Assembly: GCA_030698565.1 (NCBI GenBank)
Contig: JAUYJS010000008.1
Span: 161,275 to 225,274, forward strand
DNA: 64,000 nucleotides
Origin: Candidatus Shapirobacteria bacterium
GTDB lineage: Bacteria; Patescibacteriota; Microgenomatia; UBA12405
Direction: 5' to 3'
Shown here piece by piece: positions 41,794-63,329 of the stretch. A program made the position numbers and the translations under genes. The notes under the pieces are model-generated. The model was not told where the DNA came from. It ran no database searches and saw only the letters and a program-made list of their open reading frames with translations. The first letter of the stretch is position 1, and the number at the start of each line of letters is the position of its first letter.

Positions 41794-41924
41794 ACAACAT
41801 GTATTTTATTCCGTATTACCGAAAAATACTAAACATTGATTAAATTTGTGGTAACATAAGTTGTCCTCACAATCTGTTGCCTAAACCTTGCAAAAGGCAT
41901 GGCATAAATCCGAGTTAAGGGACG

Positions 41925-42025
41925 GAAGCTCTCCGTCTAGCTTTCCTTAACTCGGTCATATGTCGAAAGATGTATGGGTTTGATCCGCAAGGGTCCTACC
42001 GGCTAGCGGGGAGCTTTTATTTTTT
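41925..42025 (+). ncRNA. candidate small structured RNA with intrinsic terminator
   Basis: 11-bp stem CCGAGTTAAGG/CCTTAACTCGG enclosing inner hairpin GACGGAAGCTCTCCGTC, then CCGGCTAGCGGGGAGC hairpin + TTTTATTTTTT. Confidence 0.3.
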
Positions 42026-45329: not shown

Positions 45330-46622
45330 ATGACTTATAAATCAGACACCTCGACTTGGAATACTAAAAAATTGAAGTATGTTACTTGTATCAATTCAGA
45401 GGTGCTAAGAGAAAATAAAGATAAAGAGCAAGAAATAAGTTATATAGACATCAGTTCGGTAAATTCAGACGGTAGAATTAAAAAAATCGAGAAAGTCAAA
45501 TTTGGAGTAGCACCTTCAAGGGCAAGAAGAATCGTTAAGAAAGGGGATGTGATTATATCAACCGTAAGAACTTATTTAAGAGCCATTGCTTCCATTAAAG
45601 AAAACATTGATGATTTAATTGTATCTACTGGTTTTGCTGTATTACGAGCCGGAAATGAAATATCACCAGATTTTCTGAAATACGCTATATTAAATCCAGA
45701 TTTTATCGACAAGATAATGGCTAACTCAAAAGGAGTAAGCTATCCTGCAATTAGTAGTTCTGACTTGGCAAACTTGGCAATTTCGTACCCGTACAAAAAG
45801 GAAACACAAGATTTAATAAGTAGATACTTAAATTATAAAACCTCTCTTATAGACTCCTTAGTTCAAAAAAATGAAAAACTAATTAAACTTTTGGAAGAGA
45901 AAAAAGCAGCAATTATTAGTCAGACCATAACAAAAGGGTTAAATACGGATGTCGAGATGAAAGACAGTGTAGTTGAATGGGTTGGAAAAATACCAAAAGT
46001 GTGGAAAGTGGAGCCAGTTTCTTTAAACTTCAAAGAGAATAAAATCAAGAATAGTAATCTCCAAGAGAAAAATTTACTCTCACTTAGTTACGGAAAAATT
46101 ATAAAGAAAAACATTCTTTCAAATTTCGGTTTATTACCAGAATCGTTCTCAAATTACCAAATAGTTGAAAAAGATTGCATTATATTAAGACTTACAGATC
46201 TTCAAAACGATAAAAGAAGTTTAAGAGTAGGCTACGTACCTGAAAGAGGAATAATTACATCCGCTTATATTGGTCTAACCCCAAAAAGCAATCTAAATTC
46301 CAAATATATTTATTACTTGCTTCACAGTTATGATTTAAAGAAAGTGTTTTATAACTTAGGTTCTGGTGTAAGACAAAGTTTAACTTACTTTGATTTTAAA
46401 AAGCTTCCATTGATTATCCCTACAAGTGAAGAGCAAGAAAAAATTGTGGAGCATGTTGAGGTAGGGATAAGAAAAATTAGTGATTCAATTAACTATATTG
46501 ATAAGCAAATAAAATTATTAGAAGAATATCGCAAAACACTTATCTCAAATGTGGTCACTGGAAAAACTGATGTTAGAGATGAAAAAATTCCAGAAAGTGG
46601 GATAAAATACAACTATGCCTAA
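45330..46622 (+). CDS. hsdS: type I R-M specificity subunit HsdS (two target-recognition domains)
   Basis: 430 aa, follows hsdM by 3 bp; two TRD-like halves separated by the conserved central coiled-coil. Confidence 0.8.
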   Translation: MTYKSDTSTWNTKKLKYVTCINSEVLRENKDKEQEISYIDISSVNSDGRIKKIEKVKFGVAPSRARRIVKKGDVIISTVRTYLRAIASIKENIDDLIVSTGFAVLRAGNEISPDFLKYAILNPDFIDKIMANSKGVSYPAISSSDLANLAISYPYKKETQDLISRYLNYKTSLIDSLVQKNEKLIKLLEEKKAAIISQTITKGLNTDVEMKDSVVEWVGKIPKVWKVEPVSLNFKENKIKNSNLQEKNLLSLSYGKIIKKNILSNFGLLPESFSNYQIVEKDCIILRLTDLQNDKRSLRVGYVPERGIITSAYIGLTPKSNLNSKYIYYLLHSYDLKKVFYNLGSGVRQSLTYFDFKKLPLIIPTSEEQEKIVEHVEVGIRKISDSINYIDKQIKLLEEYRKTLISNVVTGKTDVRDEKIPESGIKYNYA

Positions 46623-49600
46623 TATATTAAATGAAAATACTTTTGAAACTAACATTGTTGAGAAACTAGTTTCAAGTTGTGGTTATATTGAAGGCAATCC
46701 TGTCGATTTCATTCCTGATCTGGCAATCGATACCAATCAACTATTCTCTTTTTTACTCGACTCCCAATCGAACGAAATTGACCAGCTAATCAAGGTACAT
46801 GGGGAAGATGAGTATCAGGACCGACTGATCCAACGGTTAATTAAAGAGTTAGATTTGCGGGGGACTCTTGATTGTTTGCGAAACGGTATTACTGATTATG
46901 GTGTCCATCTTAATCTTGCTTATTTCAAACCGGAATCTAGCCTCAATCAGGAGACCAAAGAAAAATATGATCAAAACATTATCTCCGTTACTCGCCAGGT
47001 CCACTTTAGTGAAAAAGACCCTGATAAATCTGTCGACCTGGTATTGTTTATCAATGGTTTACCTGTCGCTACTGCTGAATTAAAAAACCCATTTACTGGA
47101 CAGAATGTAGAAAATGCTCAGAAACAATATATTTACACCAGAGATGTCCGAGAATCACTTTTTCAATTCAAAAAAAGAGCTCTAGTCCATTTTGCCGTTG
47201 ATCCTAATTTGGTCTATATGACTACTCAACTCAACGGTGAAAATACTAAGTTTTTGCCTTTTAATAAGGGTCTAAATAATGGAGCTGGTAATCCATCAGT
47301 CGAATCCGGTTACCAAACATCATATCTTTGGGAAGAGGTCTGGAGTAAGGATGGCTGGATGGATATTATTGCCAAATATATTCACCTAGAGAAAAAAGAA
47401 ATAAAAACCGAAGGAAAAATAATTACTAAAGAGAAAATAATCTTTCCTCGTTACCACCAGCTTGATGTAGTGAGAAAGTTGGTTAACGATACCAAAAGAA
47501 GTGGAACTGGAAAAAATTACTTAATTGAACATAGTGCCGGAAGTGGAAAGAGCAACTCGATTGCTTGGTTGGCTTATCGTCTTGCAAATTTACATAATGA
47601 TTTAGATCAACCTGTTTTCGATTCAGTTGTCGTAGTTACCGACAGGGTGGTCCTAGACAAACAACTTCAAGATACGATTTATCAGTTTGATCATAAGCAA
47701 GGTGTTGTTCAAAAGATCGACAAAGATTCTGCCCAATTAGCTGATGCATTGAAGAAAGGGATCAAAATCATCATCACTACTGTTCAAAAGTTCCCCTTTG
47801 TTTTGGATCAAATTGACGAGTTGGAAGCCAAAAAGTATGCTGTAATTGTAGACGAAGCCCACGGTTCACAAGGCGGAGAAACTAGTAAACAGATGAAAGA
47901 AGTTTTGACTTTTGGTCTACACGAATCAGAAGAGTCATCGAATTTAGAAGAACCTGAAACGGCCGAAGATGAAATTAGAAAATCAATGGCATCTAGAGGT
48001 AAACAGTCAAATCTTTGTTTTTATGGATTCACCGCTACTCCTAAAGCGAAAACTCTAGAAGTCTTTGGTGAAGTTGGCAAAGACGGCAAACCCAGACCAT
48101 TCCATCTCTATTCAATGAGACAAGCCATTGAGGAAGGTTTCATTCTTGATGTCTTAAAAAGCTACACTACCTACAAAACCTATTTTCGGTTGTCCAAAGA
48201 AATCGAAGAAGATCCGGAAATAAGTAAGGATAAGGCCAATAGAGCCATCGCCCGATTCCTCTCACTACATCCGCATAATTTATCTCAAAAGACTGAAGTA
48301 ATGGTTGAACACTTCCGAAGAGTCACTATGAAAAGAATTGGTGGTAAAGCTAAGGCTATGGTAGTAACTAGTTCACGGATGCATGCAGTTAGGTACTACC
48401 TCGAATTTAATAAGTACCTAAAAGAAAAAAACTACACTGACATTAGAACTCTCGTCGCTTTTTCCGGTACTGTTATCGACAAAGATTCTGGAGCTGAATA
48501 CAAAGAAGTAGAAATGAATGGTTTTAGAGAGAAAGAACTACCAGAAAAATTCAATGCCGACGAATACAAAATACTGTTAGTCGCCGATAAATATCAAACA
48601 GGTTTCGATCAACCCTTACTCCATACCATGTATGTTGATAAAAAATTGTCAGGTGTAGCTGCTGTCCAAACATTATCAAGATTAAATCGAGTTGCTCCCG
48701 GAAAAGAAGATACCTTTGTCTTGGATTTTGTGAACGACCAAGCAACAATTTACGAATCTTTTCAACCTTATTACGAGCTGACTTCTCTTGAAGAAACTGC
48801 TAACCCAAATCATCTTTATGATCTAAAACACCAGTTAGAAGAAACCGGAATTTTCTGGCAATCAGAGGTTGATAGTTTTTCAAAGGTATTCTTTAAGCCT
48901 AAACAAACCCGAGCTGATCAAGCTGAACTTTACAGACTAATTCAACCAGCTATAGAAAGATATATTGCACTTGATGAAACAAAAAAAGAGGAATTTAAAA
49001 AGATGTTGACTGCCTTTATTAGAACCTACGCTTTTCTTTCCCAGATCATGCCATTCACGGATACTCAACTGGAAAAACTTTATGTTTTTGCCCGATTATT
49101 GAGAAATGCTTTACCTAGAAAAAATAATAATAACTTGGAGTTAAATGATGAGATTGCTTTGCAGTATTACAAACTTCAAAAAATTTCAGAGGGATCAGTT
49201 GAGCTATCAAAAGAAGGGGAGGTAAATCTCCCTGGAATAATGGGTGACTCTGGCAATGCTTCCACTGGTGAGGATGAAAAATCCAAACTATCAGAAATAA
49301 TCAAAACATTAAATGACAGGTTCGGAACTGAATTTAGTGAAGCAGACAAACTTTTCTTTGACCAAATTGAAGAAGAGTTGATTGCAGATCAAAAACTCCA
49401 AAAACAAGCATTAAACAACGAGATCGGTAATTTCAAATATGGTTTTAATGAAGTCTTCGTCGATAAAATCATTGACCGGATGGAGCAGAATCAGGAAATC
49501 TTTAACAAGATTATGAATAATCCTGACTTTAAAGCAGTTGTTTCCGATTGGATGCTCAAAAAGGTCTACAAAAAACTTAGTCAAAAAGTATCTATAAAGT

Positions 49601-50070
49601 CTTTGATTAAAGAAGGAGAGGGGCAGAATCTTGAATTTAAATCTTCTCTTAGATGGGACGTTAAGCAAGGTAAAGAAAATAAAGATTTGGAAAAAGTGAT
49701 AATGAAAACTCTCGCCGGATTTATGAACTCCGAAGGTGGACAGCTAATTATTGGAGTAGAGGATAATGGTAATGTTCTGGGCTTGGAAAACGATTATCAA
49801 ACTCTTCAAAACGGAAATAGAGATAAGTTTGAAACCCACATGGTACAACTAATGAAAGCCTTAATGGGTATAGAGTTTGTTCAATATGTCAGGTTCCTGT
49901 TCGACAAAATTGAAGGAAAAGATGTTTGTCTAGTAACTGCTATCAAATCACCAAAACCTGTATATGTGAAGTATCAAGACAAAGAGGAGTTCTTTGCCCG
50001 GACTGGCAATTCCACTAGCCCATTTACTCTAAGTGAAGCACAGGAGTTTATTAAAACACATTGGAATTAA
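46615..50070 (+). CDS. hsdR: type I restriction enzyme HsdR fused to a C-terminal AlbA_2/Schlafen-like putative DNA-binding domain
   Basis: HsdR_N (VDLVLFINGLPVATAELK), DEAD-box helicase (GSGKSNS, VVDEAHGSQ); C-terminal about 150 aa GQNLEFKSSLRWD...LAGFMNSEGGQLIIGVEDNGNVLGLEN matches AlbA_2 (PF04326). Confidence 0.85.
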   Translation: MPNILNENTFETNIVEKLVSSCGYIEGNPVDFIPDLAIDTNQLFSFLLDSQSNEIDQLIKVHGEDEYQDRLIQRLIKELDLRGTLDCLRNGITDYGVHLNLAYFKPESSLNQETKEKYDQNIISVTRQVHFSEKDPDKSVDLVLFINGLPVATAELKNPFTGQNVENAQKQYIYTRDVRESLFQFKKRALVHFAVDPNLVYMTTQLNGENTKFLPFNKGLNNGAGNPSVESGYQTSYLWEEVWSKDGWMDIIAKYIHLEKKEIKTEGKIITKEKIIFPRYHQLDVVRKLVNDTKRSGTGKNYLIEHSAGSGKSNSIAWLAYRLANLHNDLDQPVFDSVVVVTDRVVLDKQLQDTIYQFDHKQGVVQKIDKDSAQLADALKKGIKIIITTVQKFPFVLDQIDELEAKKYAVIVDEAHGSQGGETSKQMKEVLTFGLHESEESSNLEEPETAEDEIRKSMASRGKQSNLCFYGFTATPKAKTLEVFGEVGKDGKPRPFHLYSMRQAIEEGFILDVLKSYTTYKTYFRLSKEIEEDPEISKDKANRAIARFLSLHPHNLSQKTEVMVEHFRRVTMKRIGGKAKAMVVTSSRMHAVRYYLEFNKYLKEKNYTDIRTLVAFSGTVIDKDSGAEYKEVEMNGFREKELPEKFNADEYKILLVADKYQTGFDQPLLHTMYVDKKLSGVAAVQTLSRLNRVAPGKEDTFVLDFVNDQATIYESFQPYYELTSLEETANPNHLYDLKHQLEETGIFWQSEVDSFSKVFFKPKQTRADQAELYRLIQPAIERYIALDETKKEEFKKMLTAFIRTYAFLSQIMPFTDTQLEKLYVFARLLRNALPRKNNNNLELNDEIALQYYKLQKISEGSVELSKEGEVNLPGIMGDSGNASTGEDEKSKLSEIIKTLNDRFGTEFSEADKLFFDQIEEELIADQKLQKQALNNEIGNFKYGFNEVFVDKIIDRMEQNQEIFNKIMNNPDFKAVVSDWMLKKVYKKLSQKVSIKSLIKEGEGQNLEFKSSLRWDVKQGKENKDLEKVIMKTLAGFMNSEGGQLIIGVEDNGNVLGLENDYQTLQNGNRDKFETHMVQLMKALMGIEFVQYVRFLFDKIEGKDVCLVTAIKSPKPVYVKYQDKEEFFARTGNSTSPFTLSEAQEFIKTHWN

Positions 50071-50772
50071 ATGGATAATGATAAAGCCCCAAAATCAGGT
50101 GTAGTATATATTCTCATCAATGATGCCATGCCTGGCTATATCAAAATCGGCATAACCCAAACCTCCGTTGAACAAAGAGTAAAAGAACTTTCACGGACAT
50201 CAGCGGTCCCCATTCCCTTTGAATGTTACTTTGCAGTTCGTGTGGCTGATGTCCGACGAGTCGAAGCTGCTATCCATAATGCTTTTGGAGATCACCGAAG
50301 AAATCCTAAAAGAGAATTTTTTCAGCTCGCACCAGAACGAGTTGTCCCTATTTTAAAATTATTAGCGATTGAAGAAGTACATATTTCAGTAGATGCTGGT
50401 GTCGAAAATAAAGCAGACGCCCAAGCCTTAGAGCTGGCCCATAAAAGGAGAGCAGCCTTTAATTTCGAAATGGCCCAAATTCCAATAGAGTCTGAACTGA
50501 AATTCATTCGTAATGAAGAAATAACTTGTTCAGTTGCACCTGATCAAAAACATGTGATATTTAATGGCGAAACGATGTCTGTTTCTTCTGCTGCCCAAAA
50601 AGCCTTAAATAGTAAATGGCAGGTTCAAGGTCCGGCTTACTGGACCTATGAAGGAGAAATTCTTGACGAAAGACGAATAAGAATAGAGGCTGGAATTCCC
50701 ACTGACAAAGAAATCGAAGAAGCGGGGGATTATTGGATGAATCTACAAGATGAAATTGCAAGGGGTAAATAA
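50071..50772 (+). CDS. T5orf172 (GIY-YIG-related) plus DUF4357-type protein
   Basis: GVVYILINDAMPGYIKIGIT...RVKELS...PFECYFAV = T5orf172/MUG113 domain; ATG directly abuts the hsdR stop; locally higher GC. Confidence 0.6.
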   Translation: MDNDKAPKSGVVYILINDAMPGYIKIGITQTSVEQRVKELSRTSAVPIPFECYFAVRVADVRRVEAAIHNAFGDHRRNPKREFFQLAPERVVPILKLLAIEEVHISVDAGVENKADAQALELAHKRRAAFNFEMAQIPIESELKFIRNEEITCSVAPDQKHVIFNGETMSVSSAAQKALNSKWQVQGPAYWTYEGEILDERRIRIEAGIPTDKEIEEAGDYWMNLQDEIARGK

Positions 50773-50854: not shown

Positions 50855-52741
50855 ATGTATTTATCAAGGTTAAAGATAAAAGGTTTTAGAGGAATTGTTA
50901 GTTGTAGTTTTGACTTCAAGTCAGGAGTGAATGTCCTTATTGGAGAAAATGCTAGCAATAAATCAGCTGTAATTGACGCTTTGAGACTTTTGTATTGCTT
51001 AGGAGATCCACAGAGGGATATATGGGTGAAAGATGAAGATTTTAATGTAAATCTTGAAACAAACACAAAGGTGGAAAAAATATCAATAGAATACGAATTT
51101 TCTGATATGTCAGTAAAACAAAAAGGAGCTTTATATGAATATCTTATCTTGGGGAAAACCGAATCTGAGGATTTGTGTAAATTCACTTTGGAATATCAGC
51201 AAAGAAAAGACGGTAGCATCATTACTGAGTATTTTTCAGGTACAGATCCAGAGCAAAAACCAGGCGGTGATACGTTTTCTATATTTCAGCATTACTATCT
51301 AGACGCTCTCCGTGATAGCACTCACATGCTACTTAATAACAAAAAGAACATTTTAGGAAAACTTCTTTCTAGGACAATTTCCCGAAGTGGTTCGGAAAAT
51401 GAATTTCAAACAATAATTAACACTGCGAATAAAGGTCTCCTTGCACGTAATGAGATAAGTCAGACAAGACATAATATAAACGAAAATCTCCGAGGTATTT
51501 TCAAAAGAGTAGAGTCAAGTAATGTAGGGTTAAGAATAGATTCTTCCAGGATAGATTATATTATGAACACAATTAAGCCATATTTACCTCATAATCTAGC
51601 AATAGAAGACTCCCCTGGATTTCAAATTGGACAAAACAGTTTGGGATTTAATAACTTAATTTATTTTGCAGTTGTTTTAGGGGACATACGAGAGAGAAAA
51701 AAAATTGAAAAACTTTACCACTTTGCGTTACTAATTGAAGAACCAGAAGTACATTTACACCCACAACTACAATTAAACTTATATAGATTTTTAGAGGACA
51801 ATCTTAGCGGTAATACACAACTATTTTTAACGACACACTCACCAACGCTAACCTCGAAAGTACCATTATCGAGTCTAAATCTTATCGCTAAAAATTGTGT
51901 TTGGAATATGGAAAACTGTTTTTTGGACCGTAGTTCAGAAAATATAAAAAAGGACGGGACGAATCTCACTGATGCCAATTTTAAAACCGAAAAGAACAAA
52001 GTCGAAAGGTATATTGACGTTACTAGATCACAGATGTTTTTTTCAAAAGCAATAATTTTTGTGGAAGGTATTAGTGAAGAGATGTTGGTACATAAGTTAT
52101 GTAAAAAATTAGGCTTCGAACTTGAAGATTTTCAGATAGAACTGGTGAATGTAAATGGTGTATCATTTTATCCTTTCATTCATTTCTTCAATTCTTCTTC
52201 AGCTTCTAAAAGACTTCCCCAGCCAATTTTAATACTAACTGATGACGACCGCTATCCGAATTCCAAAAATAAAAAGTATTCATTTAACAAGCTGATTTCA
52301 AAAGAAGAGATTCTAGATAATCTGGTGAGTAAAATTGAGTCCGGAGCAGCAAGTAAAAGAATCTCAAACTTACATGATATTTCGAACGGTCAGCTTATCG
52401 ATATAAAAACTTCATATCAGACATTTGAATTAGATCTGGCTTATTCAAATGTATTTCCCAAGCAAGATATATTTTATAAAAATGCACTTATAAACTATCT
52501 AAAGGACTACCACAATAATAAATTTGAAAAAATAAAAAAATATGTAGATAAACTATTTACTGTGAAGACGATCTTGGATCAATCCGAGAGAAAAAAAATA
52601 GCTTTACTTCTCTGGAAGTGCATAAAAACAAAAGCGAACTTCGCTCAAGAGTTCTCAATCTATCTCGAAAATTCTACTTTGATGTTTGTTGTTCCAAGAT
52701 ATATAAGAAGGGGATTAAAAAGATTAGTAAACTCAATATGA
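50855..52741 (+). CDS. OLD-family ATP-dependent endonuclease (ABC-type ATPase plus Toprim), GajA-like
   Basis: N-terminal LSRLKIKGFRGI...NVLIGENASNKSAVIDAL (AAA_15/21 P-loop); C-terminal Toprim IIFVEGISEEMLV and LILTDDDRYP. Confidence 0.65.
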   Translation: MYLSRLKIKGFRGIVSCSFDFKSGVNVLIGENASNKSAVIDALRLLYCLGDPQRDIWVKDEDFNVNLETNTKVEKISIEYEFSDMSVKQKGALYEYLILGKTESEDLCKFTLEYQQRKDGSIITEYFSGTDPEQKPGGDTFSIFQHYYLDALRDSTHMLLNNKKNILGKLLSRTISRSGSENEFQTIINTANKGLLARNEISQTRHNINENLRGIFKRVESSNVGLRIDSSRIDYIMNTIKPYLPHNLAIEDSPGFQIGQNSLGFNNLIYFAVVLGDIRERKKIEKLYHFALLIEEPEVHLHPQLQLNLYRFLEDNLSGNTQLFLTTHSPTLTSKVPLSSLNLIAKNCVWNMENCFLDRSSENIKKDGTNLTDANFKTEKNKVERYIDVTRSQMFFSKAIIFVEGISEEMLVHKLCKKLGFELEDFQIELVNVNGVSFYPFIHFFNSSSASKRLPQPILILTDDDRYPNSKNKKYSFNKLISKEEILDNLVSKIESGAASKRISNLHDISNGQLIDIKTSYQTFELDLAYSNVFPKQDIFYKNALINYLKDYHNNKFEKIKKYVDKLFTVKTILDQSERKKIALLLWKCIKTKANFAQEFSIYLENSTLMFVVPRYIRRGLKRLVNSI

Positions 52742-54540
52742 GTTTTAATTTCGATCTTACCGAGGAGAGGAAGATTTTTTTAAGTAAGAGAGGAAAGGTA
52801 ATACTATCAGCTTGTCCCGGTAGTGGAAAGACCACGGTATTAGCATATAAAATGGTTAATTTAGTGAAAGAAGTTGAGAGTAAGCACAATAAACATGCGG
52901 GGGTATTATGTTTATCTTTTACTAATGTTGCAGCCCAAGAAATTCTAGAAAAATATCGCGTATTTAGTGGATTTAACCTAGGCCGACCATCCCAAGTAAT
53001 GACAATAGATAGTTTTGTAAACACTTATATTACACTTCCTTTTTACAGGTTGTTAGCCAATAAAGACATAAGACCCCAAATAGTTGAAGATCTGGAATTA
53101 GATTTAATACTCAAAAATTATGTAATGAGATTTTTAATCAATAGAAAACTAATATATTTTATCTATCCTCCAAGAAAATTTGAGTTTGATGTAAATGGAA
53201 ACTTTGTCTTACCATTTTTATCAAGCTTTACTTCTCCCCAAGATGTTGAGAACCTTGGTAAGTATGTGGCTAAATTAAAAGAAGTCCAACTAGACAAGGG
53301 AATATTTAAGAACAATGACTCAACATTCATAGCTTTAAAGATAATTGAGAAATTCCCAAGGATAAAAAACTATTTGACTACAAAGTTCCCGTATATTTTA
53401 ATAGATGAAGCTCAGGACACATCTGAGAATCAATATAAACTTATAGAATCGTTGACGGAAAGTAATCTCGAAGATCTTGAGTTGGTAGGCGATCATTATC
53501 AAGCTGTCTATGAATGGAGAGATGCAAATCCAACCAAGTTTTGTGAACTGAAAGTAGACAAAACCTGGCAATCTTGCGATTTTACTGATTGTAGAAGATC
53601 GAATCAATCGATAATTGATGTCTACAGTAAGCTAAGAAACTCGACAGAAAATAAGATATCTTCAACTTCTGCTGATATGGTACAGAATCCTGTTCAAATT
53701 GTTTTGTTCAATGAAGCTAACTTAGTTGATGCAGCTAAAAAATATGAAGAAATAGTCAGTTCCTACGAATCCAATATCATTTTATCCAGAGGTAATTCTT
53801 TGATTGAGAATTTAAAAGGAATATCAAGTGATAAGAAACTTCCTTGGAAATTAGATGTGCCGATAAAGCTAATTAACGCAAAAAAGTATTTAGATAGTGG
53901 AAACATAAAAAAGTCTGTTGATATTGTGAGATCATTTATACCACTGCTTCTCGATAATAATGCTCCTTTTTCCGAAAGAAAGATTACAGAAAGAGAATTA
54001 AAAAAAGATTGCGAATTTAATGCTTCATTGTTAACTTTAATCAAAAAAATACCCTCATTTGAGTTATCACTTAAAGAATGGACTAAACAAGGGGAAGATT
54101 TAATAAATGGACTTCTAAAACAATCACCTAACATCTCATTCGAGTTAAAAAAAGGGATTTGGATAAAAGAATATCCCAAAAAAATAGTCGAAATTTTCGA
54201 TATGCAAAACAATGTAATAAAAACAAATGTTTCTACTATACATGGTGTAAAAGGAAAGACATTTGATTCTGTTTTTATAATCTTAAATAGTTCAAGTTCT
54301 GGCCAGAGCATATCGATAAATGATTATGTCCAACCTACTAGCCTTCCAAATGAGAAACAAAGGCTACTGTATGTGGCGATGTCTCGACCAAAGCACTTGC
54401 TGGTAATAGGAATACCGTCTTCTACTTGTGATGTAAACAAAGCCAAACAACTTTTTGGCAACGAAGTCCAAATTCATCAAATTCCTGAATCAATTACAAT
54501 TTCATCTCCAGAGATTGCAATGTCTCAGACCAATACATGA
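52738..54540 (+). CDS. UvrD-like superfamily 1 helicase, GajB-like
   Basis: ATG overlaps gajA stop (ATGA); Walker A SACPGSGKTT; motif II ILIDEAQDTS; C-terminal VSTIHGVKGKTFD and LLYVAMSRPKHLL. Confidence 0.65.
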   Translation: MSFNFDLTEERKIFLSKRGKVILSACPGSGKTTVLAYKMVNLVKEVESKHNKHAGVLCLSFTNVAAQEILEKYRVFSGFNLGRPSQVMTIDSFVNTYITLPFYRLLANKDIRPQIVEDLELDLILKNYVMRFLINRKLIYFIYPPRKFEFDVNGNFVLPFLSSFTSPQDVENLGKYVAKLKEVQLDKGIFKNNDSTFIALKIIEKFPRIKNYLTTKFPYILIDEAQDTSENQYKLIESLTESNLEDLELVGDHYQAVYEWRDANPTKFCELKVDKTWQSCDFTDCRRSNQSIIDVYSKLRNSTENKISSTSADMVQNPVQIVLFNEANLVDAAKKYEEIVSSYESNIILSRGNSLIENLKGISSDKKLPWKLDVPIKLINAKKYLDSGNIKKSVDIVRSFIPLLLDNNAPFSERKITERELKKDCEFNASLLTLIKKIPSFELSLKEWTKQGEDLINGLLKQSPNISFELKKGIWIKEYPKKIVEIFDMQNNVIKTNVSTIHGVKGKTFDSVFIILNSSSSGQSISINDYVQPTSLPNEKQRLLYVAMSRPKHLLVIGIPSSTCDVNKAKQLFGNEVQIHQIPESITISSPEIAMSQTNT

Positions 54541-54649
54541 AATTCTTACCGTATTTTAGCTATCTAAAAGATTTCGATATTACTTGGTTTAATCCATATG
54601 GGGGTTGTTTTAGTTCTCATTTAATAGATAATATTGAGCAAGATTATTT

Positions 54650-55561
54650 ATGAAAATATCAGAAAAAGATATTAAATTGCTTTGGGGTAAGTCGGGTAAC
54701 CGATGTTCGATTTGTCATGTCGAACTATCTTCTGACAAAAAAACATCCACAAAAGACTATCCTCTCGGCGAACAAGCCCACATAGTTGCAGAAGAATCTA
54801 GTGGTCCAAGAGGCGAAAGCCAACTTACTTCGTTGGAAAGAAACTCGTATTCAAATCTGGTACTTTTATGTCCAACACACCACACAGCCATTGACAAAGA
54901 TACAGACTATTATTCGATAGAAAAACTCCAATTTATAAAAAGTAATAACGAACAGTGGGTTAGAGAAAAGTTATCAAGTATTATAGACCTTCACAATGAG
55001 GCAAAAGACATGGTTTATGCTGACTTGATAGATAAAATTGTAAAATTTATCGATCTTGAACACTGGGATAGCTGGTCAAGTCATCTGTTATCCTCTTTGC
55101 ATCGTATGGACCAAACTCTTAGAAACTCGCTTCTGGACTTGCAGGTTCAAGTATCGAAAACTTTATGGTCTGGAAAATATCCAGACCTTGAGAAAGCGAT
55201 GAAGCTTTTATCAAAATATTTTGGTGATGTTTTGGGGACTTATCTGGAAAACGCAGAATTAAATAGCGAAGGAGACTATAAGGGAGTGAAATTTTATAAG
55301 AATTACTATGGAAAGGCACAATCTGTTGTCAGTGAAAAAGTTGCTGAATACGACAAGTGGGAAGAAGATCTGTCAACCTCAATGCACGAGGCTACAAAAA
55401 GTTTAAATTTATTTGCAGATAAGGTCAGAGAGCACTTTAATCCATTTTTTTACGTCACTGACGGTAAATTTATGATAGTTGAAGGACCATATGAAGACTT
55501 AGAATTTAAATATTACACACCTGAATTTACAAATTTAGAGAAACAAACAAAAACATCTTAA
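54650..55561 (+). CDS. HNH endonuclease domain protein with about 200-aa uncharacterised C-terminal domain
   Basis: CSICHVEL...GEQAHIVAEE...NLVLLCPTHHTAID = HNH motif. Confidence 0.6.
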   Translation: MKISEKDIKLLWGKSGNRCSICHVELSSDKKTSTKDYPLGEQAHIVAEESSGPRGESQLTSLERNSYSNLVLLCPTHHTAIDKDTDYYSIEKLQFIKSNNEQWVREKLSSIIDLHNEAKDMVYADLIDKIVKFIDLEHWDSWSSHLLSSLHRMDQTLRNSLLDLQVQVSKTLWSGKYPDLEKAMKLLSKYFGDVLGTYLENAELNSEGDYKGVKFYKNYYGKAQSVVSEKVAEYDKWEEDLSTSMHEATKSLNLFADKVREHFNPFFYVTDGKFMIVEGPYEDLEFKYYTPEFTNLEKQTKTS

Positions 55562-55601
55562 TTATTTTTATCAAAATCAAAAATTATATATTTGTGAGTA
55601 A

Positions 55602-56270
55602 TTGCCACTAATGGAAAAAATAATAGAATGGATTCAGACAAATTACGGCTGGATTTTCAACATAATTATACAAAGCTTTATTGCCTATCATATTTATTTT
55701 TTGTCAAAAAAAATATCAACAGAAGCTAGGCTTGAACATAGGGAAAATATTAAAGAAATAGCAGAAACGATCCTGTCAGAAATTCATAAAAAGGGTTTAA
55801 CTTCAAAAGTTTACTTAGTTAACATTGTTAGATACTTTAAAGATTATCCCTCTAATAAAGAAAACATATTTACCGGGTATTCTCACATTAGGGCTGAGAT
55901 CAAATCCACTAGATATGATGGAATTGAATTCTTTGCTGAGTCACCAAAAGAGGTTTATAAAAAATCTAATGGGCAACTTTCTTTTACTGGGAAAAAAGAG
56001 AATAAATTATTTAATGTATACCCGGTAGGAATTGTTCCTTACGACTGGATAGAATACCTAGATTCAGAAGGTGACGAATATGGATATGTACCACTAATCT
56101 ATTGTTATTTTAAAGGAAGGGTCTACTGGAAGTTCTGGAAAAAACTCTTGTTTTTTGGCTACCCATACAAGAAAATAATTTACTACAAACTAAATGAGAT
56201 TTACAATGAAAGAAACGATCCTCGTGATATGAAATATTCTTATGTATATGACAAGATCTATAAAAAGTGA
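55602..56270 (+). CDS. hypothetical membrane-anchored protein
   Basis: 222 aa; N-terminal TM YGWIFNIIIQSFIAYHIYFL; Y/W-rich. Confidence 0.4.
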   Translation: MPLMEKIIEWIQTNYGWIFNIIIQSFIAYHIYFLSKKISTEARLEHRENIKEIAETILSEIHKKGLTSKVYLVNIVRYFKDYPSNKENIFTGYSHIRAEIKSTRYDGIEFFAESPKEVYKKSNGQLSFTGKKENKLFNVYPVGIVPYDWIEYLDSEGDEYGYVPLIYCYFKGRVYWKFWKKLLFFGYPYKKIIYYKLNEIYNERNDPRDMKYSYVYDKIYKK

Positions 56271-56956: not shown

Positions 56957-57622
56957 ATGTCTCGAGTTTTTTTAATCATCTCTCTAATCATTAATGCCAT
57001 TTTAGGTTTTTTATTTCTTCGTCCCCGTCCAGTTATCCCAAATCTCTATCAAGTCGATCGCGTCATCGATGGCGACACTTTTATTGTCAAAGAAGGAGAC
57101 TTGTCTGCCGGCAGGCAGATTCGTCTTATGAGTGTCAACTCTCCCGAAGTCGGTCTTTGCGGCAGTGCAGAAGCCACAGCTAAATTAAAAGAATTAATTG
57201 ATGGTAAAAAAGTTCGATTAGTCGGTGATCTCAATGATCATTATGGTCGTCTCTTGGCTCTGGTTTATGTTGACGATCAATTAATTAACAAAGAAATAAT
57301 TCTTTCCGGCTGGGCCCGTTTCACTTCAACTGCATCTTCAGAATCCGAAAATTTAAAATCCGCTTTTCAAAAGATAAAAACCGAAAAATTGGGAGTTTTT
57401 AGTTCCAAGTGTTATCAAACCACCAACCCTCAAAATCCAAAATGTAACATCAAAGGAAATGTCAAAGAAGGTAAAAAAATTTATTTTTTCCCCGGTTGTG
57501 GCAATTACAGCAATGTCGCCCTCGAACTAGATCAAGGCGATCAATGGTTCTGTTCCGAATCCGCTGCCACCTCCGCCGGTTTTACCAAAAGCGCCAATTG
57601 TTATGCGAAAGTGTATTACTAA
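56957..57622 (+). CDS. thermonuclease (staphylococcal nuclease, SNase-like) with N-terminal anchor and Cys-rich C-terminal extension
   Basis: VIDGDTFIV...RLMSVNSPE...YGRLLALVYVDD...NKEIILSGWA = SNase core; contains the CTGCCGGCAGGCAG palindrome in-frame (DLSAGRQ). Confidence 0.7.
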   Translation: MSRVFLIISLIINAILGFLFLRPRPVIPNLYQVDRVIDGDTFIVKEGDLSAGRQIRLMSVNSPEVGLCGSAEATAKLKELIDGKKVRLVGDLNDHYGRLLALVYVDDQLINKEIILSGWARFTSTASSESENLKSAFQKIKTEKLGVFSSKCYQTTNPQNPKCNIKGNVKEGKKIYFFPGCGNYSNVALELDQGDQWFCSESAATSAGFTKSANCYAKVYY

Positions 57623-57733: not shown

Positions 57734-59395
57734 ATGAACGAAGAATTACTAACAATTAGCCAAGTAGCTTTGATGTTTAATATCCATCCAGACACCCTTA
57801 GAAATTGGGAAAAAGACAACAAACTTGTACCTTTACGAGTTGGGCCAAGACAAGATCGAAGATATCGAAAACAAGATATTCAAACCATACTTGATAAATT
57901 GGGAAACAAATTAACGCTTCCACAACTAGAACAATTTTTATGGAGAAGTGCAGATATTTTAAGAGACAAAATTGATAGTTCTGATTATAAAAAATATATT
58001 TTTGGTCTTCTTTTTTACAAACGGATTAGTGATGTTTGGGATGAGGAATACAAAAAGATATTTGATGAGTTTGGCGACAAATCTTTGGCTCTTGCTGATT
58101 ACAATCATCGATTCCAAGTACCAGCCGATTGTGGCTGGTCAGTTATTACCGAAACATCAGAAAATATTGGTCGCAAACTAAATGAGATTTTTGAAAAGAC
58201 AACTAATGTCAACAGTCCCAAACTAGACAAAATTTTTGATGATTTAGACTTTGCCAACAAAGATCGTTTCCCAAATGAAACAATTCAAAAATTAATTAAT
58301 CATTTTTCTCAATATAATTTTAATAGCAATTACATTAGTTCAGATTTACTCGGTGATGCTTACGAATATTTAATCAAGGAGTTTGCCGCTGACGCTGGTA
58401 AAAAAGGTGGCCAATTTTATTCACCTCGTGAAGTTGAAAGAATAATTATAGGAATTGTTAAACCTCATCAAAAAGATCATATATGCGATCCAACCGTAGG
58501 ATCAGGAGGATTTTTACTTGAAGCATACAATTACCTAAAAGATAAAGCCGGAGAACAAATCGCTCGCTCACTATATCTATATGGCCAAGAAATAAATATC
58601 AGTACCTTTGCCATTGCTCGGATAAATATGTTTTTGCACGGTCTTGATAGTGCTGACATTCGTCGAGGCGATACTCTTGCCAATCCACAGTTTTTAAACA
58701 ACATGGGAGGATTACAAACCTTCGACATTGTGGTGGCAAATCCACCCTACTCGATAAAAGATTGGGAATTTGAAACATTTAGGAATGATAAATACGGTCG
58801 AATTGATGATTATGAATTGCCACCACAAAAAAATGCCGACTTTGCATTTCTGCTTCATATTGTTAAAACACTAAATGCCAATGGTCGTGCTGGTGTGGTT
58901 CTGCCACACGGAGTTTTATTTCGTGGCGGTGCTGAGGGTAGAATTCGCGAACAATTGATAAAACATGGACTAGTTGAAGCTATTATTTCACTCCCTGCCA
59001 AATTATTTTATGGCACAGGTATTCCAGTTGCGATTTGGATATTAAATAAAAATAAGTCAGAAGAGAAAAAAGACAAAATATTAATTATCGATGCCTCAAA
59101 AGAATATTTAGAGGGTAAAAATCAAAACAGTATCCGAAAACAAGATATTGAAAAAGTCATTAATACTTTTGATCAATATCAAGATATCGAAAAATATGCC
59201 CGAGTTATCGATATAAAAGAAATAAAAGAAAACGATTTTAATCTAAATGTCACTCGTTACATCGACTCAAACGAAGAAAAAGAAGTTATTGATGTCAAGC
59301 AAGTGTGGAATGAATTGAAAATATTAGAAACAGAAAGGAAAGATATTGATAAAAAAGTTAATAGTTTTATAACGGAGTTAGGCTATGACAAATGA
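57734..59395 (+). CDS. hsdM: type I R-M methyltransferase HsdM with N-terminal MerR/excisionase-type HTH
   Basis: N-terminal LLTISQVALMFNIHPDTLRNWEKDNKLVP (HTH_17-like); motif I DPTVGSGGF; motif IV VVANPPYS. Confidence 0.85.
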   Translation: MNEELLTISQVALMFNIHPDTLRNWEKDNKLVPLRVGPRQDRRYRKQDIQTILDKLGNKLTLPQLEQFLWRSADILRDKIDSSDYKKYIFGLLFYKRISDVWDEEYKKIFDEFGDKSLALADYNHRFQVPADCGWSVITETSENIGRKLNEIFEKTTNVNSPKLDKIFDDLDFANKDRFPNETIQKLINHFSQYNFNSNYISSDLLGDAYEYLIKEFAADAGKKGGQFYSPREVERIIIGIVKPHQKDHICDPTVGSGGFLLEAYNYLKDKAGEQIARSLYLYGQEINISTFAIARINMFLHGLDSADIRRGDTLANPQFLNNMGGLQTFDIVVANPPYSIKDWEFETFRNDKYGRIDDYELPPQKNADFAFLLHIVKTLNANGRAGVVLPHGVLFRGGAEGRIREQLIKHGLVEAIISLPAKLFYGTGIPVAIWILNKNKSEEKKDKILIIDASKEYLEGKNQNSIRKQDIEKVINTFDQYQDIEKYARVIDIKEIKENDFNLNVTRYIDSNEEKEVIDVKQVWNELKILETERKDIDKKVNSFITELGYDK

Positions 59396-60209
59396 ACCAA
59401 TAACTATATTTGAAGAGTCAAAAAGAGTTAATCAGCATAATTCAGAATATTGGTCTGCTAGAGCACTGGGAAATATCCTTGGATATTCAGAATATAGACA
59501 CTTTTTACCTGTAATTGAAAAAGCAAAGGAATCTTGTATTAACTCAAAACAACCGGTGAATGAACATTTCGAGGAATACCTCGAGATGATCAAACTGGGT
59601 CATGGTGCCGAGAGACCTATAAGTGATATTAAATTGTCCAGATATGCTTGTTATTTAATAATGCAAAATGCTGATCCGTCAAAAGAAGTGGTTGCACTTG
59701 GACAGACATATTTTGCAATTCAGACTAGAAGACAGGAGATACGGGATCAAACGATTGAAGACAATAAAAGAATGTTCCTAAGAGAGGAAGTAACCGCTCA
59801 CAACAAACATTTAGCAGAAGCAGCGAGTATGGCAGGTGTCAGAAATTATGGCATTTTTACAAACTACGGATACATGGGTTTGTATGGGGGTAGGTCAATG
59901 GTAGAAATACATCAAAAAAAAGGATTAAAGAAAAGTCAAAAAATTTTAGACTTTATGGGAAGTGAAGAGTTGGCTGCAAATTTATTTAGAGCTACGCAGA
60001 CAGATGCAAAATTAAGACGAGATCAAGTAAAGAATGAAGCTGTGGCCAATCATACCCATCAAGAAGTCGGTCGAGAAGTTAGGGACACAATACGGAAGTT
60101 AGGTGGCACCATGCCCGAAAATCTCCCAACTCCCGATGCAATCACCCAAGCAAAAAAGAGAATTAAAAACATAGAAAAAGTAATGTTGAAAAACAATGTC
60201 TCAAAATAA
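59385..60209 (+). CDS. RhuM/DinD-family protein embedded in R-M operon
   Basis: 274 aa between hsdM and hsdS, the characteristic position and size of Virulence_RhuM/DinD proteins; N-terminal ...SARALGNILGYSEYRHF... Confidence 0.5.
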   Translation: MTNEPITIFEESKRVNQHNSEYWSARALGNILGYSEYRHFLPVIEKAKESCINSKQPVNEHFEEYLEMIKLGHGAERPISDIKLSRYACYLIMQNADPSKEVVALGQTYFAIQTRRQEIRDQTIEDNKRMFLREEVTAHNKHLAEAASMAGVRNYGIFTNYGYMGLYGGRSMVEIHQKKGLKKSQKILDFMGSEELAANLFRATQTDAKLRRDQVKNEAVANHTHQEVGREVRDTIRKLGGTMPENLPTPDAITQAKKRIKNIEKVMLKNNVSK

Positions 60210-61386
60210 TCAGAAAACATCAGTAAAATGGCCAATCAAAACAATGTCTGAAATTGTTGAATTTGCCTATGGTCAAAATCTTCCGAAAGAAAAACGCATC
60301 ACGGGTAATTGCGAAGTTTATGGTTCTAATGGGGTAGTTGGTTCACACAATCAATTTTTTGTTGAAGGTCCAGGAATTATTATTGGCAGAAAAGGGAGTA
60401 TTGGTAAGGTTATTTATACAGATAAAAATTTTTGGCCAATCGACACTACATACTATGTAAAACCGATTGATGAACTAGATTTAAAGTGGTTATATTATTG
60501 CCTCCAAATGTTAAAACTTGACAAGTTGAATTCTGCAACTGGTGTACCAGGTCTAAATAGAAATGATGTGTATTCGAAAAAAATATTGTTTCCTCCAATA
60601 AACACTCAACAAAAAATCGCCACAATTTTATCCACCATCGACGAGGCAATTCAAAAAACCGATCAAATAATCGAAAAAACAGAAAAATTAAAAAATGGGT
60701 TGATGAACGAAATGTTGACCAAAGGCATTGGTCATACAAAATTCAAAAAAACTAAATTGGGAGAAATTCCTGAGGAATGGAATGTAGTTCAACTATCTGA
60801 ATTAAGTTACATCACCAAACTTGCTGGTTACGAGTTTACTAAATATTTTAATAGTTACAAAGACCAAGGCGAGATGATAATAATTCGAGGTCTCAATTTG
60901 AAAAATAGAGAACTTGATTTGAGTAATATCAAGACAATTCCGAAATCGGTTGCTGATAATTTACAGAGGTCGAAACTAAGTTCCGGAGACTTAGTTTTCT
61001 CATACGTTGGAACGATTGGTCCAGTGGCGGTTATTACCGAAAACAACAAATATCACTTAGGGCCAAACGTCTGTAAAATTTCCCCAAATAAATACGTTAG
61101 TTCAAATTACCTTTATCAATATTTTTTAAGTGAGTTGATCAAAAAAGAAATTAATAAAAAAATTAGTGTTACGGCACAACCAAGTTTATCAATGGAAAAA
61201 ATAAGAGTCTTCGAAATAATTCTGCCATCAAATATGGACGAGCAAAATAAAATCTGCGAGATATTGATGAATTTTGATAAAAAAAATAGAAATTATGTCG
61301 CGACAAAAGAGAAATTGTTAGTCATTAAGAGTGGACTAATGAATGATATTTTTAGCCAAAAGGTGGAGGTAAATAATGCTACCTAA
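60196..61386 (+). CDS. hsdS: type I R-M specificity subunit HsdS
   Basis: 396 aa, two TRD halves with conserved central/terminal coiled-coil regions. Confidence 0.75.
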   Translation: MSQNNQKTSVKWPIKTMSEIVEFAYGQNLPKEKRITGNCEVYGSNGVVGSHNQFFVEGPGIIIGRKGSIGKVIYTDKNFWPIDTTYYVKPIDELDLKWLYYCLQMLKLDKLNSATGVPGLNRNDVYSKKILFPPINTQQKIATILSTIDEAIQKTDQIIEKTEKLKNGLMNEMLTKGIGHTKFKKTKLGEIPEEWNVVQLSELSYITKLAGYEFTKYFNSYKDQGEMIIIRGLNLKNRELDLSNIKTIPKSVADNLQRSKLSSGDLVFSYVGTIGPVAVITENNKYHLGPNVCKISPNKYVSSNYLYQYFLSELIKKEINKKISVTAQPSLSMEKIRVFEIILPSNMDEQNKICEILMNFDKKNRNYVATKEKLLVIKSGLMNDIFSQKVEVNNAT

Positions 61387-62431
61387 CGGCTGGACATTTC
61401 CCAAACCAAATCCTTCTGTGATATTACAGAACAGGGAGGCTGGAATGATTTATAGCTTTGATTTTGGAAGTGGAAAAGGAAAGTTTATTAGTACAGTGCT
61501 GGATGGTTCAGATCCATATGACATTTCTGTAAAAACCTCACCTAAAATTGAAATTAGGTTTACATATATTTTTGATAAAAAGGAAGTGGTTGGTATACAG
61601 TTTTCAAAAGCCGAAAAAGATGGTTCTCTTTCTGTGATACATTTATCCACTTTAGATTGGAATGGAATACTTAAAATTTTATATTTATTTTCTAATTTAG
61701 ACTTTTCATCACTTGCAAATAATAGTCTAATTATTGATGGTGGTTTAGTTCATGATCCAGTTGCGTTAAATAAATTTTTAATGACTGTAGCTACTGACCC
61801 AGTTGGTCAAGAAAAGATGAAAGAAGTTTTAAAAAATTTTGGAGCCATAAAAAATGGAGATATTAATGAAATTGTTGAAAGGAAAAATGCCATTGAACTA
61901 TTTGAAAAATTACTTAATAGTGCTGATGAGTTTCAAAAATATAAAACTACCAATGTTATTGGAAAGAACGAAGAGGTGTGGCAGAAGTTCTTTCAATCAA
62001 ATTCTTGGATATTAGGATCTGATTTTGTTGAAATATTAGACGAAAGGGTAATTGATGAAGAAAGTATCACTGATTTACCTGTTAAAGACTACGATGGTTT
62101 TGTAAATATTATAGAGTTAAAATTGCCTACTGAAGATTTTTGGACTCAAGAGATGATTCCTGTTTCAAATCTTACTAAGGCAATGGTGCAATGTATGCGC
62201 TATGTGACAGAGATGGAAAGAAGGATGAATGATTATAAAAAAATTGGCGAATTGGGTGCCAATATACTTAAGCCAAGAATTACTTTAATTTTTGGCAGAT
62301 CAAATGATTGGATGGATAAACACAGAGAACAATTAAAAATTCTAAACTCTAGTTTTCACAATATTTCTATTTTGACATATGACCATGTATTACAAAGAGC
62401 AAAAAAAATTACTGAACAAACAAAACATTAA
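61376..62431 (+). CDS. Shedu-like DUF4263 (PD-(D/E)xK nuclease) protein inserted between hsdS and hsdR
   Basis: EEVWQKFFQSNSWILGSDFVEIL (DUF4263 opening signature E..WQ.FF..N.WI.G) followed by DYDGFVNIIELKLP (D...E.K nuclease motif) and TYDHVLQRAKK ending. Confidence 0.45.
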   Translation: MLPNGWTFPKPNPSVILQNREAGMIYSFDFGSGKGKFISTVLDGSDPYDISVKTSPKIEIRFTYIFDKKEVVGIQFSKAEKDGSLSVIHLSTLDWNGILKILYLFSNLDFSSLANNSLIIDGGLVHDPVALNKFLMTVATDPVGQEKMKEVLKNFGAIKNGDINEIVERKNAIELFEKLLNSADEFQKYKTTNVIGKNEEVWQKFFQSNSWILGSDFVEILDERVIDEESITDLPVKDYDGFVNIIELKLPTEDFWTQEMIPVSNLTKAMVQCMRYVTEMERRMNDYKKIGELGANILKPRITLIFGRSNDWMDKHREQLKILNSSFHNISILTYDHVLQRAKKITEQTKH

Positions 62432-62453
62432 TTACATATAAATTATAAAAATT

Positions 62454-63329
62454 ATGCCAAATAAAAAATTTCTAGAGGAATATCCATTATACAGAAGGTT
62501 TGACTTCGAAATAGAAAAAATATGGTCGACTAACTACACCACTGGAGGTACTAGAATTTCACAATTACCTAAACCTGCCATAAACCTGGAATGTCCGATT
62601 TGTAAGTCGATACAAACTTTCAATATGGTTAATGAATATTTTGACGATAGCGACCTCAAAAAAAAGTACAATTCTCCGGCTTTTGTATCATTTCAGTTAA
62701 ATTATTTTTGTTCATGTTGTAAAGCTTTTCACTATGAATTCTTCGTTGATTTTGGTGTAACGAGGAAAATTGATAAAGACAAAAATGAAATTTGGACTAA
62801 TGGTTGGGTCAGAAAAATTGGTCAAAAACCAGAGTGGTCAATTGAAATTGATAGCCAAGTACAAAAATTTATAAACGAGGAAAACATTTTGCTTTTTAAA
62901 AAAGGATTAATTTGCGAATCACAGTCGTATGGAATTGGGGCATATTCGTATTATCGTAGAATTGTAGAGTCGATCATCGACGACCTACTAAAAGAAATTG
63001 AAGAACTAATTCCAGATGGAGATGAAAAAAAGGAATATTTGATTGCTTTTGAAAAAACTAAGAAAGAAATCATTGCTGCAAACAAAATTTCACTAGTAAA
63101 AGACCTAATTCCTAAAGTTTTGTTAATTGATGATGTCAATCCGTTAGCTGTTTTATATAGTGCAGTTAGTGATGGTTTACACAATAGGACAGACGAAGAG
63201 TGTTTAAATATAGCTGAAACAATTAGAGAGTGTTTATCGTTTTTAATTATACAAATCTACTCTAGTAAAAATAGTAAAAAACAATTTACAGATAGAATAA
63301 AAACATTATTAAAGAAGAAAACAAAATAA
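62454..63329 (+). CDS. hypothetical Zn-ribbon protein inserted between hsdS and hsdR
   Basis: 291 aa; CPICKS...CSCCKAFH four-Cys cluster near N-terminus; otherwise no recognised domain. Confidence 0.4.
   Translation: MPNKKFLEEYPLYRRFDFEIEKIWSTNYTTGGTRISQLPKPAINLECPICKSIQTFNMVNEYFDDSDLKKKYNSPAFVSFQLNYFCSCCKAFHYEFFVDFGVTRKIDKDKNEIWTNGWVRKIGQKPEWSIEIDSQVQKFINEENILLFKKGLICESQSYGIGAYSYYRRIVESIIDDLLKEIEELIPDGDEKKEYLIAFEKTKKEIIAANKISLVKDLIPKVLLIDDVNPLAVLYSAVSDGLHNRTDEECLNIAETIRECLSFLIIQIYSSKNSKKQFTDRIKTLLKKKTK

Follow-up and report, generated by a model that had tools for sequence, protein, structure and literature searches.

The locus described here lies in a contig assigned to a Candidatus Shapirobacteria bacterium (GenBank assembly GCA_030698565.1, contig JAUYJS010000008.1), of which a stretch of 64,000 nucleotides (nt), hereafter the window, was analysed. 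Between positions 50,855 and 56,270 of the window four genes follow one another on the plus strand, coding for two proteins that match GajA and GajB of the Gabija defence system, for a 303-amino-acid (aa) HNH nuclease with a long C-terminal tail and for a small membrane-anchored protein, and a very short open reading frame (ORF) lies between the second and the third of them. What we propose for this region, with a probability of about 0.72, is a set of three independent defence-island modules standing on one strand, namely the Gabija pair, the HNH protein and the membrane-anchored protein, and not one system. The coordinates of these and other features of the window are collected in Table 1.

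All four genes were found where an initial annotation of the sequence had placed them, the ATG of the helicase gene (52738) overlapping the TGA stop codon of the GajA gene in an ATGA, and as each of them has many homologues they can be regarded as genuine genes and not chance frames. The domains named at the time were likewise recovered: an ABC ATPase with an OLD-like Toprim domain in the first protein, the N- and C-terminal UvrD domains in the second, HNH_2 in the third (whose whole ORF spans 54650-55561) and one membrane helix in the fourth. For this last protein, described as having 222 aa, the ORF and the helix stand but the start is better placed at ATG 55611 than at TTG 55602, and as the N-termini of 40 homologues align at the former, a length of 219 aa is most likely. 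The NCBI product of the same gene is shorter (189 aa) and lacks the conserved membrane helix.

The Gabija pair

As far as can be judged from sequence, GajA and GajB are a complete, canonical and ordinary Gabija pair. The GajA model of PADLOC (PDLC00083) matches the first protein end to end (E 4.7e-220, positions 1-626 of 639) and the GajB model (PDLC00138) covers the second over positions 7-570 of 581 (E 1.6e-100), with Pfam recognizing AAA_15, AAA_21 and OLD-like_TOPRIM in GajA and UvrD-helicase and UvrD_C in GajB. The ATPase part of GajA contains a Walker A motif (GENASNKS, residues 30-37), a Walker B motif (LLIEEPE, 292) and an H-loop (THSP, 327), and its Toprim part the acidic residues E404 (FVEG) and D463xD465 (TDDD), which align with the VEG and DeD of the T. 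scotoductus OLD protein (6p74) and recur in most of the 120 homologues closest to the window protein. The Toprim region also matches the structures of class 2 OLD proteins (6nk8, E 5e-11; 6njv, E 5e-10), a class that has been equated with GajA (PMC10568477). In GajB the helicase motifs I (CPGSGKT, 26), II (IDEAQD, 222), III (GDHYQAVY, 251), V (TIHGVKGKTF, 500) and VI (YVAMSRP, 545) are present, and the protein matches the structures of Bacillus cereus GajB (8jqb and 8j4t, E 4e-13); the solved B. cereus GajA was not retrieved with the window GajA (phmmer, E<=1e-3).

The Gabija architecture suggested earlier is thus upheld by full-length matches to both models together with the Toprim residues and helicase motifs, and the check that had been named for it, a profile search combined with inspection of the catalytic residues, returned GajA as the best model by far. 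Assignment to PARIS (AriA/AriB) or to a stand-alone Old protein was considered and rejected, the AriA (E 2.8e-31) and Old (E 2.2e-26) models being much weaker and matching the ATPase part only, and a helicase partner being present.

The large size of the proteins had been taken as a possible sign of a divergent subtype, an idea that we abandon because the size of GajA is normal for a large, mostly Bacteroidota clade. The best GajA model has 639 positions and the best 120 of the homologues (2,779 at E<=1e-30) measure 625-699 aa with a median of 640; most of these 120 come from Bacteroidota and one from Dojkabacteria. In the Walker A motif of the window protein Asn stands in place of the second Gly of GxxxxGK[ST], and since all 120 of these homologues deviate at the same place (N, C or another residue), the deviation is a trait of the clade and not a mark of decay.

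Compared with known Gabija systems, such as that of B. cereus VD045, the pair has the same architecture, gene order, start/stop overlap, Toprim acidic residues and superfamily 1 (SF1) helicase motifs; it differs in its distant GajA sequence, its Walker A motif and its Patescibacteria host. In B. cereus, GajA and GajB together form a complex of nuclease and helicase by which phage DNA is cut, and nucleotide bound at the ATPase domain restrains the Toprim nuclease. For the biology of Gabija the pair shows only that a Patescibacteria genome bears a standard copy on an integrative island.

The HNH protein and its C-terminal domain

The nuclease domain of the 303-aa protein is confined to its N-terminal third, where Pfam places HNH_2 at residues 19-83 only and where all PADLOC matches fall, both those to SAVED-HNH/Cap5-type effector models (E 1e-27 to 1e-25) and that to PDC-M68A (E 8e-31, positions 5-116 of a 253-position profile). 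The top PDB matches obtained with Foldseek are Cap5 structures (8fmf, 9dih and 7rwk; E 1e-5 to 1e-4 over ~106 columns). The protein search gave ~60 full-length homologues with 31-73% identity, and conservation extends over the whole length of the protein: in 47 homologues the catalytic and zinc residues of the HNH part (C19, C22, H44, N69, C74, H78 and D82) are invariant, as are W237, N253, R260 and F267 of the tail in the homologue alignment. Membership of PDC-M68 was rejected, as the match to M68A is partial and the downstream membrane protein has no PADLOC match at E<=0.01; the "M" names of PADLOC denote multi-gene candidates. A literature search on PDC-M68 found no paper.

The C-terminal 200 residues had been described as lacking a recognisable fold. 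This holds in so far as residues 112-303 have no match in Pfam or NCBIfam and none in the PDB, either by fold (Foldseek) or by profile, but the same residues form a well-folded and conserved domain shared with other immune effectors, which in the AlphaFold2 (AF2) model of the protein (predicted local distance difference test, pLDDT, 92) consists mostly of helices with small hairpins. A SAVED domain was considered and rejected as the identity of the tail: beyond the HNH domain neither Pfam nor PADLOC gives a SAVED match, the model of the tail is mostly helical, and a good Foldseek alignment is limited to the HNH part.

A profile of the tail finds 787 representative clusters, and the best 150 matches comprise 76 proteins with HNH and tail, 42 that are tail-only or truncated and 32 with other N-termini. 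Among 26 longer tail proteins the N-terminal partners are TIR (12), SEFIR (4), PNP_UDP_1 (3), CHAT or caspase (3), SIR2 (2) and alpha/beta hydrolase, with the tail profile reaching E 1e-29 to 1e-60 against the proteins fused to TIR, SEFIR, SIR2 or PNP; seven of the 26 match the bSEFIR model of PADLOC (best E 6.5e-76) and six the PDC-S66 model. Since effectors are swapped on a constant tail, which is the usual signature of a sensor or regulatory module, the tail probably has this function in single-protein defence genes.

One of these is bSEFIR, a validated single-gene anti-phage protein whose N-terminal SEFIR domain depletes NAD+ (bioRxiv 10.1101/2022.05.11.491447, 10.1101/2024.02.11.579819). 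Proteins with the tail domain of the window match the bSEFIR and PDC-S66 models and bear an N-terminal SEFIR or TIR domain, and the HNH family, like these, stands alone with no conserved partner gene; the difference lies in the effector, which in the window is an HNH DNase in place of the SEFIR/TIR NADase. The 303-aa protein would thus add a DNase-armed variant to this group of single-protein defence genes. The tail itself is swapped among at least six types of effector. It seems to cover the uncharacterised C-terminal region of bSEFIR and offers a handle on infection sensing in the group.

With Cap5, the HNH-SAVED effector of cyclic-oligonucleotide-based antiphage signalling systems (CBASS), the window protein shares the type of HNH domain, by sequence and by fold, and the layout of an N-terminal HNH and a C-terminal regulatory part. 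It differs in its mostly helical, non-SAVED tail and in its surroundings, as there is no cyclase (CD-NTase) among the genes flanking the window HNH gene and only one of 57 relatives adjoins a CBASS operon. In that locus (L011, 3430-7897) a relative with 73% identity follows a short CBASS-like operon whose products are a membrane protein, a cyclase of the CD-NTase type (PADLOC E 9e-46), a protein resembling E2 and one of 259 aa that contains an R-x4-H motif; as the sole case among the 57 loci, this adjacency is probably a matter of island neighbourhood and not a functional link.

Genomic context of the HNH gene and the question of an extended Gabija operon

The loci of the HNH family were collected from one genome per species, which gave 80 loci from >10 phyla going by record titles, and neighbourhoods were counted in the 57 distinct full-length loci. 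No neighbour family occurs in more than two of the 57, so that a recurrent partner of the HNH gene was not found, and neither GajA nor GajB lies near an HNH-family gene in any of them (0/57). The neighbours are mostly housekeeping genes with few methyltransferases (as a control, only 3-4 among 149 HNH-family neighbours). Four copies of the family are split by frameshifts and six lie on viral or prophage contigs.

In the window the spacer between GajB and the HNH gene is filled entirely by the mini-ORF, which shares an ATGA with the GajB stop at one end and with the HNH start at the other. This 38-codon frame is a candidate gene that gene calling also picked out in an independent assembly covering the same sequence (L187). 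When the spacer is shuffled, the frame remains open in only 4.4% of cases, and the chance of the ATGA arrangement is ~0.2%, a rough estimate that allows for the frame and two flanking A's (0.044 from the shuffles, the other factors being estimated). No homologue of the mini-ORF was found in any locus compared in the analysis; a faint likeness to the N-terminus of the DUF8370 gene that stands after GajB in a related Gabija locus (L180) was too weak to use.

The initial annotation had considered that the pair and the genes behind it might form an extended operon. Gabija would then exist here as a variant of four or five genes, with the HNH protein, perhaps together with the mini-ORF product and the membrane protein, as an accessory effector. 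Physically such an operon is plausible here, as all genes lie on the same strand, ATGA overlaps link GajA to GajB, GajB to the mini-ORF and the mini-ORF to the HNH gene, and no terminator-like site separates them. The arrangement is, however, not conserved in the relatives of either side. HNH-family loci lack GajA and GajB, as said above, and in the two closest relatives of the Gabija pair (54-56% identity), where GajA and GajB likewise overlap and a serine recombinase is adjacent, GajB is followed by unrelated genes, coding for a 157-aa protein in one and for the DUF8370 protein in the other (L180); the mini-ORF, moreover, has no homologue in the loci compared. Four-base overlaps, with varied upstream genes, are also found at another HNH locus (L010), so the tight packing may be a mere habit of compact genomes. 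An extended operon of this kind thus appears improbable, and we prefer to see the HNH gene as a module of its own which is likely to be co-expressed with Gabija locally, through the ATGA chain, in a manner specific to this genome. Promoter and terminator scans of the region remained at background level and are uninformative.

At the L010 locus (8665-11127) the gene next to the HNH-family member belongs to a group formed by a helix-turn-helix (HTH) gene, an EcoRI-like methylase and a protein with GmrSD_N and HNH domains (Pfam); there is no membrane gene.

The membrane-anchored protein

The last of the four genes codes for a member of an uncharacterised Patescibacteria family embedded in restriction-modification (RM) systems, which is the most novel component of the locus and the best lead that it offers. 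The protein has 119 homologues with 39-73% identity, and all those with an organism name come from Patescibacteria; there is no match in Pfam, NCBIfam, PADLOC or PHROG, none in the PDB by fold or profile, and no member of the family in the viral contig collection. A literature search for an RM-linked membrane protein in the Candidate Phyla Radiation found no paper describing such a family.

A single N-terminal hydrophobic helix occupies residues 13-31 (Kyte-Doolittle 1.37; family median 1.73) and carries a conserved polar motif, QxFIAYH. With no K or R before the helix and five after it, the predicted topology is N-out, C-in, which places the globular part in the cytoplasm. In the AF2 model (pLDDT 85) a long stalk prolongs the helix and leads into an alpha/beta domain; charged and aromatic residues are invariant at many positions of the protein, and conserved charged residues are numerous in the cytoplasmic domain. 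A PD-(D/E)xK nuclease motif (D78 ... E96-x-K98) was considered and dropped, as E96 is G or N in some homologues.

The genomic surroundings of the family were examined in 83 loci, of which 60 are non-redundant. In the non-redundant set the upstream neighbour is on the same strand in 41/50 cases (median gap 4 bp) and the downstream neighbour in 41/54 (median gap 9 bp). According to Pfam, 28 of 104 immediate neighbours are RM proteins (Methylase_S 7, N6_N4_Mtase 7, ResIII/HSDR_N 5, EcoRI_methylase 4, N6_Mtase 3 and RE_BsaWI 2), and the RM share falls from 29% at +/-1 to 2% at a distance of >=5. At least 19 of the 60 loci have an RM gene at +/-1, and types I, II, III and IIG are all represented. 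With the membrane gene written as X, the arrangements include HsdM-HsdS-X-HsdR, Mod-X-Res, HTH-MTase-BsaWI-X (MTase, methyltransferase), MmeI-X and typeIIG-X, as well as HTH-X-M.EcoRI-like followed by a 389-aa ORF that is DUF262-like by its QPEYQRNYIY motif only. In at least eight loci a small XRE-type HTH gene precedes the membrane gene. The closest relatives (70-73% identity) follow an HTH gene, an MvaI/BcnI-type RM pair or a STAND-like gene. The window copy stands behind the HNH gene, its nearest RM gene being the HsdM at 57734, 1.46 kb downstream and past two genes.

One operon recurs in Patescibacteria (L146, L149, L151, L153 and L128) and consists of an HTH gene, the membrane gene, an EcoRI-like adenine methyltransferase and a 368-406-aa ORF, DUF262-like by the QPEYQRNYIY motif only; the group described above for L010 is a related arrangement. 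The membrane protein was considered as the missing restriction enzyme of such HTH-X-M.EcoRI-like operons and rejected in this role, since members of the family (50-60% identity) also lie inside complete type I, III and IIG systems. In a further locus (L189, 5001-6417) another ORF of the same length (217 aa) comes after the membrane gene; the two may be tandem paralogues, and both stand behind a 1365-aa STAND-like protein.

A separate two-gene system had also been proposed, in which the HNH nuclease would sense or cut and the membrane protein would be its effector or partner. The two genes do share a strand with a gap of 49 bp, and genes of the membrane family normally stand directly after nucleases or methyltransferases. 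The co-occurrence check that had been suggested for this pair was run from both sides and gave zero, that is 0/57 HNH loci, 0/83 membrane loci (60 of them non-redundant) and 0/3 additional loci from the closest relatives. Members of the HNH family occur in many phyla, whereas the named members of the membrane family are confined to Patescibacteria, and the closest membrane relatives follow the other kinds of gene listed above. We therefore regard a dedicated two-gene system as highly improbable and keep to two separate modules.

Alternatively, the membrane protein might act in Patescibacteria as a partner of DNA-targeting defence enzymes in general, serving in the window the HNH nuclease or the nearby type I system, either as a tether that would place restriction complexes at the site of DNA entry or as a latent membrane-disrupting effector that would be released on restriction failure or by methylated nucleotides. 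This would agree with the embedding of the family, at gaps of 2-10 bp, in RM operons of types I, II, III and IIG and with its conserved polar helix and charged cytoplasmic residues. There are also precedents, one in the membrane effector of type II Metis and another in PrrC, which is found within a type I operon. On the other hand, about two thirds of the loci have no RM gene at +/-1, although many of those contigs are short, and there is no fold match from which an activity could be deduced. In the genome of the window the same operon slots hold unrelated passengers, DinD and a Shedu-type nuclease domain, a pattern that fits independent hitch-hiking. A general partner is in our view rather unlikely.

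In type II Metis the effector MisC detects m6dAMP and requires host methylases. Like the window protein it is small and membrane-bound, has a portion in the cytoplasm and is linked, functionally or by genomic position, to N6-adenine methyltransferases; the window protein, however, has one membrane helix against three in MisC, and no MisB-like HAD-phosphatase family is among the 25 most frequent neighbour families of the membrane gene, so that the likeness is only an analogy. PrrC and RloC are known as restriction-linked ORFs of type I operons. The membrane family resembles these in sitting, tightly spaced, between specificity or modification genes and restriction genes; it differs in having no sequence or fold relation to any described restriction-linked protein, in being membrane-anchored and in that the window copy is outside an RM operon.

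Tentatively, the family may be an undescribed, Patescibacteria-specific class of membrane-anchored components functionally coupled to RM and other DNA-targeting defence enzymes, as a latent pore or sensor or as a tether, though we consider this doubtful. If it were so, a latent pore or sensor might kill the cell when restriction is blocked or methylated nucleotides appear; alternatively, a tether might hold restriction complexes at the DNA-entry site of DNA-scavenging episymbionts. Should the protein modulate or back up restriction, the RM biology of a major uncultured lineage would gain a new layer.

Three proposed modules on one strand

Under the reading that we prefer, that of three independent modules, GajA and GajB would act as canonical Gabija. 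The HNH protein would be a Cap5-type DNase that is held silent until a cue of infection is sensed by the helical C-terminal domain, activation occurring most likely by oligomerising, by analogy with Cap5 and its SAVED domain; in sister proteins the same tail would drive TIR, SEFIR, SIR2, PNP, caspase or hydrolase effectors. Its gene would have been inserted directly behind GajB and would probably be co-expressed through the ATGA overlaps while functioning independently of Gabija. The third module, a membrane-anchored cytoplasmic alpha/beta protein, would ride as a coupled passenger behind defence enzymes, most often in RM operons, and its most likely role would be an accessory or back-up defence of the restriction-linked-ORF type.

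Several observations weigh against this separation. The chain formed by GajA, GajB, the mini-ORF and the HNH gene consists of three consecutive ATGA overlaps and is unlikely to have arisen by chance, and the three modules lie on one strand with no terminator-like site between them, in a scan that was at background level. The membrane gene begins only 49 bp after the HNH gene and its relatives habitually follow DNA-cutting or DNA-modifying enzymes, which makes a local functional link between the HNH and membrane proteins conceivable. Finally, the connection of the tail with bSEFIR is a match to a PADLOC model and not to the sequence of the experimentally tested Bacillus protein.

The surrounding defence island

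Table 1. Genes, RNAs and repeats of the window, the four-gene locus first (positions in the window unless another locus is named).
Feature	Position	Strand	Basis or remark
GajA, class 2 OLD-family ABC ATPase and Toprim nuclease, 628 aa	50855..52741	+	PADLOC, Pfam, motifs
GajB, UvrD/PcrA-like SF1 helicase, 600 aa	52738..54540	+	PADLOC, Pfam, structures, motifs
Mini-ORF, 38 codons (candidate gene), MKFLPYFSYLKDFDITWFNPYGGCFSSHLIDNIEQDYL	54537..54653	+	gene call in independent assembly and direct sequence reading
Cap5-type HNH nuclease domain, residues 1-109 of the 303-aa protein	54650..54976	+	Pfam, PADLOC, Foldseek
C-terminal domain of the HNH protein, residues 112-303	54983..55561	+	AF2 model, profile search
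Membrane-anchored protein, 219 aa (alternative TTG 55602, 222 aa)	55611..56270	+	homologues, AF2 model
tmRNA gene	3882-4314		RF00023, 71.5 bits
Cas12a, 1246 aa	31440-35180		PDB Cas12a/Cpf1 matches down to E 2.8e-152; type V-A locus
Two ORFs after Cas12a	35135-35734 and 35728-36687		no assignment
CRISPR (clustered regularly interspaced short palindromic repeats) array, 7 repeats, ending AATTTCTACTTTTGTAGAT	37148-37571
Partial duplicate of the 5' part of tRNA-Asn	37953-38018
tRNA-Asn	38266-38338
Large serine recombinase	38299-39900	-
LOOT RNA motif	41878-41986		Rfam RF03000, 67.9 bits; inside the island
Two 90-nt direct repeats, 70% identity, 98 nt apart	43055-43242		upstream of the first HsdM
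First type I RM system	HsdM 43608, HsdS 45330, HsdR 46615-50070
Convergent 167-aa gene	between membrane gene and second RM system
Secreted-type SNase, 221 aa, with C-terminal "sunset" domain	56957-57622		NCBIfam NF051437
Second type I RM operon	57734-63329; L187 10879-14566

The tRNA-Asn duplicate and the serine recombinase together look like the border of an integrative island carrying the defence genes, and the closest relatives of the Gabija pair likewise adjoin serine recombinases. A 22-nt repeat occurs at 37979-38000 and again at 57097-57118 with 91% identity, and may be an attachment site or due to chance. The GC content falls to 25-28% at the type V-A CRISPR-Cas locus (31440-37571).

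Both type I RM systems have additional components. The HsdR of the first (1151 aa) has a C-terminal Schlafen/AlbA_2 domain at residues 1002-1137, and a T5orf172 gene, matched by PADLOC PDC-S57 (E 2.3e-69), begins at the base after its stop codon (within 46615-50772). In the second operon MerR-HsdM is followed by DinD (NCBIfam, E 1.2e-110), HsdS, a 351-aa protein with a Shedu SduA_C nuclease domain and a 291-aa protein (PHROG 25239), and its HsdR (969 aa) and a RhuM-family gene lie just past the end of the window, as seen in L187.

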